Positions 22,473-57,406 of a stretch of 64,000 bases of DNA are shown piece by piece. The stretch is taken from the NCBI RefSeq assembly GCF_003334385.1, contig NZ_QOWN01000016.1; one strand, 5' to 3'. Position 1 is the first letter of the stretch. Each line of letters opens with the position of its first letter. This DNA is from Escherichia coli. Its GTDB lineage: Bacteria > Pseudomonadota > Gammaproteobacteria > Enterobacterales > Enterobacteriaceae. A program made the position numbers and the translations under genes. The notes under the pieces were generated by a model. It made no database searches and had not been told where the DNA came from. It saw nothing but the letters and a program-made list of their open reading frames with translations.

Positions 22473-22497
22473 ATTCTGCAGACACTGTCTGCAGAAT
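22473..22497. repeat. Palindromic element, CAGAC-N3-GTCTG family, copy 1 (extragenic, between nanQ and yhcG)
   Basis: ATTCTGCAGAC-act-GTCTGCAGAAT with perfect 11 bp arms; lies in the 59 bp gap between the two convergent genes. Confidence 0.8.
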
Positions 22498-22512: not shown

Positions 22513-23640
22513 TTAACGGCGTCTATAGCCTTCCTCTAGCACCGCCTGTGTTCGAACGAGTTCATCTGCGAGTCGTTTCTCATCAGGTAGTTGCATCTTA
22601 TATTCGCTTGCCAGAACGGTGTTAGGCAAACCTGCCAGAGCATAATGCGCTTCTCCGGCTCCTTTCTCTGCACAGAGAACCAGACCGATGGGCGGATTTT
22701 CATCCGGTAGCGTCCAGTGCTCTTTGGCGTAGTTGAGATACATATTCATCTGTCCGGCATCGCTATAGCTGAATTTGCCCACTTTTAGATCGACGATTAG
22801 CAGGCAGCGTAAACGGCGGTGGAAAAACAGCAGATCGACACGAAACCAGTTGTCATCAATGCGTAACCTTCGCTGCCGACCAACAAAGGCAAAATCATCC
22901 CCAAGTTCCAGCATGAAATCCATCAGGTGGTTGATCAGCGCCTCCTCAAAATCGGATTCTGAATATTCATCTTTCAATTCCAGAAATTCGAGCACAAAGG
23001 GATCGCGTATCGCCTGTTGCGGAAGAATATGCGTCTCGGCAGGAGCGTGTTGTTGCAGCATGGCTGATTTGTCATGTGACAGTAGTGTCCGCTCATAAAA
23101 CTGGGTCGCAATTTGCCGCTCTAGCTGGCGAACAGACCAGCCACAGCGGAGCGTCTCTTTTTCATAAAAGCTGCGGGCGTCAGCGTTTTTAACGGAAAGT
23201 AAACGGACGTAGGTGGACCTGGGCAAGGGGAAAGATTTGGCAGACAGCGTCTGCCAAATCTTTGCCGATGGGAATTCTGCAGACGGTGTCTGCGGAATTC
23301 CCAATGGTGTTAATTCGCCAGACATTGTCTGGCGAATTTCAACATGTTGAAAAAAGAGGTAAAAAAGCCTCATTTGGCGTAAGTTTTTTGCAGAGAACCC
23401 ACGCTTATACCTTAGACATAAATCCTTTGATAGTCGCTTGATTAGCTGCGCACCATACGCAGCCCTGGCCTCGCCACCTTGTTCAAATTCGACAATTCGT
23501 CGGCCAATTTCCTGGTACGTCGCGGTCATTAACGCGTTAACGCTACGTACCGTTTCCGTCCGGGCGCTATCGACCAGATGAATAATACCGTCGTGGATTT
23601 GCTGGTAGCCTGCTGTGGTTCCTTCTGAGAGCGATTCCAT
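22513..23640 (-). CDS. yhcG: YhcG, DUF1016-type protein with a predicted PDDEXK nuclease-like C-terminal region; function unknown
   Basis: 375 aa ORF convergent with nanQ; recognised as YhcG; the centre carries three in-frame 39 bp palindromic repeats (23231-23338). Confidence 0.8.
   Translation of the reverse strand: MESLSEGTTAGYQQIHDGIIHLVDSARTETVRSVNALMTATYQEIGRRIVEFEQGGEARAAYGAQLIKRLSKDLCLRYKRGFSAKNLRQMRLFYLFFQHVEIRQTMSGELTPLGIPQTPSAEFPSAKIWQTLSAKSFPLPRSTYVRLLSVKNADARSFYEKETLRCGWSVRQLERQIATQFYERTLLSHDKSAMLQQHAPAETHILPQQAIRDPFVLEFLELKDEYSESDFEEALINHLMDFMLELGDDFAFVGRQRRLRIDDNWFRVDLLFFHRRLRCLLIVDLKVGKFSYSDAGQMNMYLNYAKEHWTLPDENPPIGLVLCAEKGAGEAHYALAGLPNTVLASEYKMQLPDEKRLADELVRTQAVLEEGYRRR
23231..23338. 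repeat. Three tandem palindromic elements of the same family (copies 2-4), 39 bp period, inside the yhcG reading frame
   Basis: AAAGATTTGGCAGAC-agc-GTCTGCCAAATCTTT (perfect 15 bp arms), GGGAATTCTGCAGAC-ggt-GTCTGCGGAATTCCC (one mismatch), AATTCGCCAGAC-att-GTCTGGCGAATT (perfect 12 bp arms); centres 39 bp apart; the minus strand translates as ...RQTMSGELTPLGIPQTPSAEFPSAKIWQTLSAKSFP... within YhcG. Confidence 0.85.
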
Positions 23641-29611: not shown

Positions 29612-29636
29612 ATTCGCCAGACACAGTCTGGCGAAT
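29612..29636. repeat. Palindromic element, CAGAC-N3-GTCTG family, copy 5 (extragenic, just downstream of gltD)
   Basis: ATTCGCCAGAC-aca-GTCTGGCGAAT with perfect 11 bp arms; arms identical to intragenic copy 4. Confidence 0.8.
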
Positions 29637-53773: not shown

Positions 53774-55033
<1,260 letters not shown>

Positions 55034-55080
55034 TCGTCTGAGAGCTGGCAGCCCCGTTCGCGGGGCTACCGCCAGACCAC

Positions 55081-55359
55081 TCATTTTTTCGGTTTAGTGT
55101 AGCTACGCATCAACTGCGTTCTGTCGATAAACTCATGGGTCTGCGGATCATGGTAGCGTGATGGCCAGATAACCCAGGGGTCAGTTCCCAGGGCTTTCGC
55201 AATAATCATCTCTCCTTTCGGCCATGGGCGCGATAATGCATTCGCCAGCGTTGAGGAACTCAAACCATTTCTGCGAGATTCCGCCGCCATTGACGTTCCC
55301 TTCTTGCGCAAACCCGCAATGATGTCAGCGGGATGCCAGTCAATGAAATTACTTTCCAT
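55081..55359 (-). CDS. sfsB: Ner-like DNA-binding regulator SfsB (Nlp)
   Basis: 92 aa; recognised as SfsB/Nlp. Confidence 0.9.
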   Translation of the reverse strand: MESNFIDWHPADIIAGLRKKGTSMAAESRRNGLSSSTLANALSRPWPKGEMIIAKALGTDPWVIWPSRYHDPQTHEFIDRTQLMRSYTKPKK

Positions 55360-55552
55360 TTTTCCTCACTCCTTAAGTTAGTCGCTTTCATTCAGAACAC
55401 TTCTTCTGTCGAGTATCACTATACTCCTGATGGCCTATTGCTCTAAAAAGTTCCTGTAAAGAGTGTGAATATTCAGAATATATAAAGATGCACATCCCTA
55501 TTTTTCAGGTGTTATAGAGCTGAATAAGTGTTTTTATGGAACTTACTGGAAC

Positions 55553-55575
55553 CATCCCGCGCGCTGCGCGGGATG
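55553..55575. repeat. Perfect palindrome ATCCCGCGC-gct-GCGCGGGAT just downstream of ispB
   Basis: 9 bp GC-rich arms with a 3 nt spacer, 12 bp beyond the ispB stop; no U-tract on either strand. Confidence 0.6.
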
Positions 55576-55586
55576 AGGGGAGGGGA

Positions 55587-56558
55587 TTAACGATCGCGTT
55601 GAACAGCGATGTGCGCGAGGCCGATGAGTGCTTCTCGCCAAGGGGTGTCCGGGAGCACCTGTAACGCTGCGATGGCTTTGTCTGCTTCTTCCTCGGCACG
55701 CTGACGCGTCCATTCAAGAGATCCACAAGCGTTCATTGCTTCCAGAACCGGTTCCAGAAGATGGCGACCGTTACCCTGTTCGATGGCGGTACGGATCATC
55801 TGTGCCTGTTCTGGTGTGCCATGATGCATCGCATGCAGCAGCGGCAGCGTCGGTTTACCTTCGTTCAGATCGTCGCCGACATTTTTACCTAACTGTTCGC
55901 CATCGGCATTGTAATCGAGTAAATCGTCGATCAACTGGAAAGCAGTGCCGAGATAGCGCCCATAATCCTGCAGGCCTTTCTCCTCCTCCGGCGTACAGCC
56001 AGCCAGAATCCCGGAACACTGCGCGGCAGCCTCAAACAGACGCGCGGTTTTGCTATAGATAACGCGCATGTAGTTTTCTTCAGTGATGTCCGGATCGTTA
56101 ACGTTCATCAGTTGCAGAACTTCACCTTCTGCGATGACGTTTACGGCTTCTGACATGACTTCCAGCACTTTGAGCGAACCGAGGCTGGTCATCATCTGGA
56201 AAGCGCGGGTATAAATAAAATCGCCTACCAGCACGCTGGCGGCATTGCCAAATGCGGCGTTGGCGGTAGCTTTACCCCTGCGCATATCTGATTCATCCAC
56301 AACGTCGTCGTGTAGCAGAGTCGCCGTGTGGATAAACTCGATCAGGGCAGCAATGGTGACATGCGCATTTCCCTCATAGCCAACAGCTCGTGCAGCCAGT
56401 ACAGCAATCATCGGACGAATACGTTTACCGCCGCCGCTGACGATGTAATAGCCTAACTGATTGATCAGTTGGACGTCGGAATTAAGCTGCTCAAGGATTG
56501 CCGCATTAACACCCGCCATATCTTGCGCGGTTAACTCATTGATTTTTTCTAAATTCAT
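55587..56558 (-). CDS. ispB: Octaprenyl diphosphate synthase
   Basis: 323 aa with polyprenyl synthase DDxxD motifs (LLHDDVVDESD, IDDLLD); ATG at 56556-56558. Confidence 0.95.
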   Translation of the reverse strand: MNLEKINELTAQDMAGVNAAILEQLNSDVQLINQLGYYIVSGGGKRIRPMIAVLAARAVGYEGNAHVTIAALIEFIHTATLLHDDVVDESDMRRGKATANAAFGNAASVLVGDFIYTRAFQMMTSLGSLKVLEVMSEAVNVIAEGEVLQLMNVNDPDITEENYMRVIYSKTARLFEAAAQCSGILAGCTPEEEKGLQDYGRYLGTAFQLIDDLLDYNADGEQLGKNVGDDLNEGKPTLPLLHAMHHGTPEQAQMIRTAIEQGNGRHLLEPVLEAMNACGSLEWTRQRAEEEADKAIAALQVLPDTPWREALIGLAHIAVQRDR

Positions 56559-56715
56559 CGCAAAAGCCGGGCTTTTCGCCCCGATTACCTTACTGTGAAC
56601 AAAGGCAACTTAGGGTTTATGGTTAGGAATATAGGGTGATTGTACTGAAAAAATGGCACAGATAAACGTTACCGTACAAGTTGTGTTTTTTTTCTTCGTG
56701 TATTGACTGTAGCAC

Positions 56716-56744
56716 TTGTCAAAGGCGTGCGTTTTGCGTAATAT
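56716..56744 (+). promoter_or_regulatory. Candidate sigma-70 promoter for rplU-rpmA (TTGTCA, 17 bp spacer, TAATAT) with a GC-rich discriminator
   Basis: Near-consensus hexamers with 17 bp spacing about 70 bp upstream of rplU, followed by TCGCGCC. Confidence 0.4.
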
Positions 56745-56780
56745 TCGCGCCCTATTGTGAATATTTATAGCGCACTCTGA

Positions 56781-57406
<626 letters not shown>

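Follow-up and report, generated by a model that had tools for sequence, protein, structure and literature searches.

The locus and its question

What does a perfect, GC-rich palindrome do immediately downstream of an essential gene if it lacks the U-tract of an intrinsic terminator? Such a palindrome follows ispB in the window analyzed here, a stretch of 64,000 nucleotides of the Escherichia coli chromosome that includes the region mlaC-murA / sfsB / ispB / rplU. An earlier note, based on the letters of this DNA, had proposed that the element is more likely a protein-binding palindrome, an RNA stability element or a REP-like unit. The genes and signals around it are the following (positions of the window).

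mlaC, mlaB, ibaG and murA (murA at 53774..55033), + strand: genes from the ORF list, the RefSeq annotation of matching genomes and MG1655
55081..55359, - strand: sfsB (nlp) CDS, co-directional with ispB and downstream of it (ORF, RefSeq, MG1655)
55418..55447, - strand: sfsB sigma-70 promoter TTTAGA-18-TATAGT, next transcription unit (promoter scan)
55587..56558, - strand: ispB CDS, octaprenyl diphosphate synthase, 323 aa (ORF; RefSeq E. coli genomes; MG1655 b3187)
55587-55589, - strand: ispB stop codon TAA
after ispB, + strand: rplU-rpmA (ORF list, RefSeq annotation)

The hairpin region would insulate the sfsB unit from ispB. For sfsB, a constitutive RpoD promoter with the same hexamers has been described (PMC3946193). 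The locus is present in 5,426 of 5,426 complete E. coli genomes, and MG1655 and the window share one sequence over the ispB stop, the hairpin and its tail. An IspB scan of species-representative genomes yielded 80 Enterobacterales loci, in most of which sfsB lies 186-333 bp after ispB; this position (+186 to +333 nt from ispB) holds for most Enterobacteriaceae, Erwiniaceae and Hafniaceae loci. Two short ORFs, one of 56 aa (55543..55713, - strand) and one of 42 aa (55536..55664, + strand), were dismissed as out-of-frame, low-complexity and unsupported.

Several other elements were observed around sfsB. A near-invariant GGAACTT/GAACTTTTTAGAAC at 55430-55447 overlaps the sfsB -35 region and resembles the sigma-E -35 element (GGAACTT); the -10 side beside it is a poor sigma-E fit, and the promoter is catalogued as RpoD-constitutive. 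Upstream of this promoter, at 55454-55487, lies an imperfect palindrome with a conserved block, TATATTCTGAATATTCAC. The BglJ-RcsB activator site has been mapped by mutagenesis with its centre 65-68 bp upstream of the sfsB start site (PMC3950696), and the position of the block would fit that site. Convergent murA and sfsB have in common a GC-rich hairpin (GGCAGCCCCGTTCGCGGGGCTACC) at 55040-55095, with TTTTTT about 19 nt downstream on the + strand, on which a simple terminator scan made no call. Published data place 3' ends there at MG1655 3335191-6 for murA and 3335229 for sfsB.

Geometry and significance of the palindrome

On the + strand, positions 55553-55575 read C-ATCCCGCGC-gct-GCGCGGGAT-G. 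At 100% complementarity, its two arms (55553-55562 and 55566-55575) form a 10-bp perfect inverted repeat around a 3-nt loop, which bears out the description of the palindrome as perfect. The distance of 12 bp from the ispB stop given earlier is right for a palindrome with 9-bp arms; the 10-bp stem ends 11 nt away. Two features follow on the strand of ispB.

55576..55586, - strand: C-rich, G-free spacer UCCCCUCCCCU from the stop codon to the hairpin (sequence)
55553..55575, - strand: RNA stem-loop CAUCCCGCGC-AGC-GCGCGGGAUG, 10 bp, or 11 bp if a closing U.G is counted, at roughly -18 to -20 kcal/mol

The order in the ispB-sense RNA is UAA-UCCCCUCCCCU-CAUCCCGCGC-AGC-GCGCGGGAUG-GUUCCAGUAAGUUCCAUAAAAAC. 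The palindrome had been described as followed by GAGGGGAGGGG; this is correct on the + strand but not in the transcript, where that stretch is the pre-hairpin spacer UCCCCUCCCCU, and the RNA sequence 3' of the hairpin is GUUCCAGUAAGUUCC. As had been noticed, a U-run is missing on either strand: the tail after the stem is GUUCCAGUAAG, with a longest U-run of 2, and a consensus scan found 0 terminator-like sites in 54900-56700.

The exact palindrome pattern matches once in the window, against 0.09 matches expected. A search of the window for perfect stems of 10 bp or more and loops of 3-8 nt gave 23 hits at about 11 sites, where dinucleotide shuffles gave 0.35, and most of the other hairpin-type repeats of this size have an A-run at their start, as canonical terminators often do. 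When 121 nt of the - strand RNA were folded, the hairpin dominated the structure (z = -3.5) and 0 of 200 shuffles folded equally well. A scan of 54900-56900 against Rfam 15 at a permissive E-value returned no match on the hairpin; the three matches obtained in all lay elsewhere and were at chance level (E of at least 1).

The window also contains five near-identical perfect palindromes of another kind, TTCnnCAGAC-N3-GTCTGnnGAA, where 0 are expected by chance.

22474-22496, 23236-23258, 23275-23297, 23314-23336 and 29613-29635: TTCnnCAGAC-N3-GTCTGnnGAA palindromes

Three of them are arranged in tandem with 39-bp spacing inside a yhcG-sized ORF of 375 aa (22513..23640, - strand), where they encode a repeated xQTxSxE/K peptide; one lies just past the stop of this ORF and one between gltD-sized and gltF-sized ORFs. 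This family occupies 1-4 places in E. coli genomes.

Conservation of the hairpin and strand preference

Eight E. coli strains (92-99.7% identity) have the same stem apart from a single A-to-G change, which converts A-U into G.U on the ispB-sense strand, and the middle base of their loop is C or U. A hypervariable stretch of about 50 nt starts about 25 nt downstream of the hairpin in these strains. The hypervariable spacer (about 55490-55530) runs from the hairpin and its adjoining motif to the sfsB promoter block, with conserved sequence on both flanks, and in one genome an IS1 is inserted about 20 nt after the hairpin (NZ_CM194533; L008 3223-3920).

Beyond the species, a hairpin of -12 kcal/mol or lower occurs within 80 nt of the ispB stop in 91% of 81 Enterobacterales loci, compared to 4.4% of dinucleotide shuffles, and the mean energy of the best simple hairpin in that interval is -16.1 kcal/mol. 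The stem varies from 7 to 14 bp and the loop from 3 to 8 nt across these loci. Between families, the stem sequence is wholly different and the hairpin is retained, as the following stems illustrate.

Escherichia: CCCGCGC
Buttiauxella: UAGCGCGCC
Pantoea: GGGGCC
Serratia: CAGACCCGC
Photorhabdus: AACCUGG

Covariation was analyzed in two ways. RNAalifold, applied to an unfitted MAFFT alignment of 37 Enterobacteriaceae sequences, returned 6 pairs, 5 of them with compensatory changes. A covariance model was then built from the MAFFT alignment with the E. coli stem as structure, and its 32 sense-strand hits were realigned (set A5). The search for this set used a stricter E-value than that for a previous set (A4), in which reverse-strand self-matches and unrelated weak hits were mixed. 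In A5 (32 Enterobacteriaceae), 92.1% of the cells are paired compared to 77% in shuffles, 8 of the 10 pairs carry changes on both sides, and 42 cells are doubly changed where 11.9 are expected; none of the 500 shuffles attains these figures, and controls with a slid partner are 28-67% paired. These figures come from an alignment fitted to the structure and from related sequences, but they are backed by the unfitted alignment and the shuffled-energy test, which agree in direction.

When both strands were searched symmetrically, the sense hairpin was the more stable one in 40 loci and the antisense hairpin in 18 (binomial p = 0.005). G.U pairs number 42 on the sense and 27 on the antisense strand, and A5 contains 16 U.G/G.U and 9 A.C/C.A cells. 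This strand bias gives modest but consistent backing to an RNA element of the ispB transcript. Since pairing is kept while sequence drifts, and since G.U pairs are biased to the sense strand, the hairpin acts as RNA and not as a protein-binding DNA palindrome. These comparative data show selection of the hairpin as an RNA structure on the ispB-sense strand.

The same data bear on two of the functions proposed in the earlier note. That the palindrome is bound as DNA by a protein dimer, for instance as an operator in the regulatory region of sfsB, might be expected from the perfection of the symmetry, from the location upstream of sfsB and from the inner C-G/G-C pairs, near-invariant in Enterobacteriaceae (31/32). 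Yet the half-sites are not conserved among orthologous loci: in other families they are fully replaced while the hairpin persists, the stem changes are compensatory and include G.U wobbles, which in DNA are mismatches of the symmetry, and stem and loop are both variable in length. The palindrome also lies about 140 bp upstream of the sfsB start site, not at the mapped BglJ-RcsB position 65-68 bp upstream (PMC3950696). The protein-binding proposal thus does not stand up to the comparison between families, and we consider an operator very unlikely. A dispersed extragenic palindrome of the REP/BIME kind has even less to recommend it, to the point that we give it practically no credence. The ispB palindrome is indeed extragenic, GC-rich and placed at a gene 3' end, and REPs can likewise serve as 3' protective structures that stabilize the upstream mRNA (PMC6061677). 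But the 64-kb window contains it only once, also when 3 mismatches are permitted, and a 37-nt query centred on it (E<=10) finds a single place in K-12-type genomes, a uniqueness that does not fit a REP-like unit. The same query finds two or more "places" in some E. coli genomes; the extra ones may arise because a palindrome also hits its own locus on the opposite strand. A REP unit is also longer than the 23 nt of the palindrome, and its consensus is a different sequence.

Mapped 3' ends of ispB

The hairpin coincides with a 3' end mapped in vivo. For ispB, a 3' terminus classed as "Primary" is recorded on the MG1655 + strand by Bar et al. 2023 (TRS, Nat Commun; PMC10687069); we transferred it to the window via identical sequence.

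55540..55553, - strand: published ispB 3'-terminus peak (MG1655 + 3334715-3334728)

Supplementary Data 2 of that study has two rows for it on different sheets (3334715-3334728, dominant 3334720, signal 0.77; 3334715-3334724, dominant 3334718, signal 0.88), and Supplementary Data 3 has one (3334716-3334727, dominant 3334721, signal 0.82; PMC10687069). The dominant ends 3334718, 3334720 and 3334721 are window positions 55550, 55548 and 55547. As the stem ends at 3334715, the dominant mature ends are located 3-6 nt beyond it. The fold predicted in the same resource is exactly the ispB hairpin, entered in Supplementary Data 3 at -20.2 kcal/mol, and its "Max U-tract" is 2; the ispB 3' UTR is given there as 41 nt, and the read density of the sfsB CDS is 5-8 times below that of ispB (PMC10687069). 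The ispB end is not prominent in every dataset: in the two passages covered of the Term-seq table from Adams et al. 2021, no + strand 3' end is given at this site. The elemental-pause consensus (G-10 Y-1 G+1) was tried as well and misfits the mapped ends.

Mapping of ispB 3' ends had been suggested as a check on the palindrome, and the published maps of MG1655 answer it with a primary terminus just past the hairpin. Together with the conservation of structure, not of sequence, in Enterobacterales, this mapped steady-state end upholds the RNA stability element among the functions proposed in the earlier note. What fails is the premise that a missing U-run speaks against a 3'-end role, as U-poor hairpin termini form a large known class in E. 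coli (PMC6061677).

Flanking composition and type of terminator

In that class, described by Dar & Sorek 2018 (NAR 46:6797; PMC6061677), Rho-dependent E. coli transcripts end sharply just after stable stem-loops that have neither U-tracts nor upstream A-tracts. Such 3' ends are created by the trimming activity of PNPase and RNase II, and C>G enrichment (rut) is found just downstream of the stem-loops; the authors further discuss that the type of terminator could switch in evolution by U content alone, with transition states (PMC6061677). The ispB element is compared here with both this class and the canonical intrinsic terminator, starting with its flanks.

55490..55552, - strand: C>G, G-poor tract, candidate Rho-loading/termination zone (composition, YC periodicity)

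In E. coli, C/G is 3.0 in the 60-nt segment 55571-55630, whose end lies within the hairpin; over the roughly 100 nt that follow the hairpin, it is 1.3-1.7. Averaged over 37 Enterobacteriaceae, the 60 nt after the hairpin contain 27% C and 11% G (C/G 2.5), and the spacer from stop to hairpin in the 37 loci contains 46% C and 8% G. YC dimers are periodic at lags 10 and 11 (z = 6.2 and 4.4; 37 Enterobacteriaceae), with z-scores that overstate independence because the 37 sequences are related. Being C-rich, G-poor and YC-phased, the flanks resemble a rut site in sequence, C>G composition and YC spacing being weak predictors of low specificity.

With the canonical intrinsic terminator, the ispB element shares a stable GC-rich stem-loop (10-11 bp, -18.4 to -20.2 kcal/mol) of equal size and energy and the position after a gene, but it lacks the 7-8-nt U-rich tract directly 3' of the stem, E. 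coli having 2 consecutive U's. Real U-tracts are borne by the homologous hairpins of Hafnia, Edwardsiella, Photorhabdus and several Pantoea. These U-tract homologues reach tail scores of 4-5, E. coli 2.4. At least 6 T in 8 nt are found at 1 of 37 Enterobacteriaceae loci against 11 of 44 loci of other families, and 20 of the 37 have at most 3 T per 8-nt window near the stem end. A d'Aubenton-Carafa-type score is marginally positive in E. coli (+4), above 0 in 14/37 Enterobacteriaceae and below 0 in 23/37. The distribution of U-tracts would fit a switch of terminator type.

Compared with the class of Dar & Sorek, the ispB steady-state end is sharp and falls right after the stable stem-loop (3334718-21 vs 3334715), there is no U-rich sequence after the stem and no A-tract before it (5' flank UCCCCUCCCCU), and a rut-like excess of C over G, a feature of low specificity, lies beside the structure. 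By these sequence criteria, the element belongs to the class of U-less 3'-terminal protective stem-loops.

A conserved motif adjoining the hairpin

The sequence that follows the stem contains a motif of its own.

55533..55551, - strand: tail motif UUCCAGUAAG-UUCCAUAAA, conserved, adjoining the hairpin and built of two units, each about 10 nt; unique in the window

It reads UUCCA(G/A)UAAG-UUCC..AUAAA (55533-55552, - strand; L009-L043, L087). YCCA(R)(W)AA occurs within 0-11 nt of the hairpin in 21 of 37 Enterobacteriaceae and 0 of 44 loci of other families, against a background of 0.5% of 24-nt windows; it starts 0-5 nt past the hairpin in 19 of the Enterobacteriaceae loci and 9-11 nt past it in 2 more. 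The motif is conserved within E. coli, the next 40 nt being hypervariable, and the published dominant ispB 3' ends fall within its first UUCCA. Its TAA is not universally conserved and is therefore not a conserved stop codon. None of the consensus sequences of Mu Ner, CpxR, TorR, ArcA and sigma-E seems a convincing match.

A generic rut site does not account for the conserved UCCA(R)UAA. The motif may consist of the phased YC dimers of a rut site, or it may be a specific exonuclease stop, a site for an RNA-binding protein or a far-upstream DNA site of sfsB.

Proposed mechanism and alternative explanations

Because the ispB element shows every sequence-level feature of the class described by Dar & Sorek, we favor termination downstream of the hairpin, probably Rho-dependent, followed by trimming back to a protective hairpin, a reading that we hold to be probable, with some reserve. 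In the monocistronic ispB mRNA, the transcribed palindrome would be the final structured element, 11 nt past the stop. RNA polymerase would mostly pass the hairpin. Its release would come a little later, in the C-rich and G-poor spacer that precedes the sfsB promoter, with Rho as the most likely agent, to judge from the resemblance to the class. PNPase and RNase II would then trim the unstructured tail 3'-to-5' until the hairpin halts them, and this trimming would leave the sharp mature end 3-6 nt past the stem. The hairpin would thereby define and protect the ispB 3' end and, together with the termination zone, keep ispB transcription out of sfsB. The idea of protective stem-loops at Rho-dependent transcripts' 3' termini is reportedly a hypothesis of Peters et al. 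from 2012.

The likeness to the class thus comprises a stable GC-rich hairpin soon after the stop, a steady-state end just past the stem, the missing U-tract and upstream A-tract, C>G downstream and low-to-moderate gene expression. Two points differ: at ispB, Rho sensitivity and exonuclease trimming are ascribed by resemblance, and the element has an unusually conserved UCCA(R)UAA abutting the stem as well as a C-rich tract before it. In the lambda tR1 Rho-dependent terminator, the order is rutA - boxB hairpin - rutB. C-rich segments likewise flank its hairpin on both sides, and a hairpin could join two rut halves at ispB too; this analogy is architectural only: the sequences are dissimilar, and an N/Nus antitermination context is absent at ispB.

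Release of polymerase without Rho is the alternative that deserves most attention, although we regard it as rather unlikely. Here the strong hairpin and the two proximal U's (GG-UU-CC) would act as a non-canonical intrinsic terminator, possibly with help from NusA/NusG or with Rho as backup ("hybrid"), and the mapped ends would be points of termination, lightly nibbled. The position of the ends 3-6 nt past the stem agrees with this, as does the hairpin energy of -18 to -20 kcal/mol, which is in the intrinsic-terminator range. E. coli has a slightly positive d-score and Citrobacter (tails UUCUUAUAA) a clearly positive one, and the pattern of U-tracts across families, frequent on the homologous hairpin outside Enterobacteriaceae, suggests descent from a canonical terminator. 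Intrinsic terminator efficiency in E. coli, however, drops steeply without a U-tract; the longest U-run at ispB is 2, the consensus scan gave no hit, the d-score is negative in most Enterobacteriaceae, and the U-less state with C-rich flanks is kept across the whole family. We retain this alternative because of the very strong stem with its two U's and the +4 d-score. A different possibility, and an improbable one, is that the hairpin and the UCCA(R)UAA repeats form an RNA processing or regulatory module (RNase, ProQ/Hfq platform, or exonuclease stop at CC) that would set ispB mRNA stability or permit conditional read-through into sfsB. The tight placement of the motif beside the hairpin, its restriction to Enterobacteriaceae, its persistence next to a hypervariable stretch and the dominant ends inside its first UUCCA all argue for such a module. 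On the other hand, the hairpin matches no Rfam family, the literature searched contained nothing linking ispB to ProQ or Hfq, and the motif is equally explicable as phased YC dimers of a rut site or as a DNA site of the sfsB upstream region. The more specific proposal that the hairpin and the Enterobacteriaceae-specific UUCCA(R)UAA repeats are a dedicated 3'-end module and not just any barrier, with a tRNA-like "stem-NN-CCA" end or a phased protein-binding platform, appears to us quite improbable. If true, such a module would determine precisely where the ispB transcript ends or would render termination conditional, and expression of the essential quinone-tail synthase IspB would be coupled to read-through into the regulator gene sfsB.

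Implications

The ispB hairpin is an ordinary, known kind of 3' end, and published data already record its position. One need not seek an exotic function when the U-tract is missing: U-poor hairpins mark the stable 3' ends of a large share of E. coli genes. Beyond annotation, the importance of the finding is small, and the adjacent conserved UCCA motif is a small residual puzzle at the ispB 3' end. For the cell, the hairpin probably sets the mRNA stability of essential ispB and probably shields the weak, BglJ-RcsB-activated sfsB promoter from upstream transcription. For the order, the Enterobacterales series, in which some families have U-tract terminators and all of Enterobacteriaceae a U-less hairpin flanked by C-rich sequence, is a natural example of the switching of terminator type proposed by Dar & Sorek.
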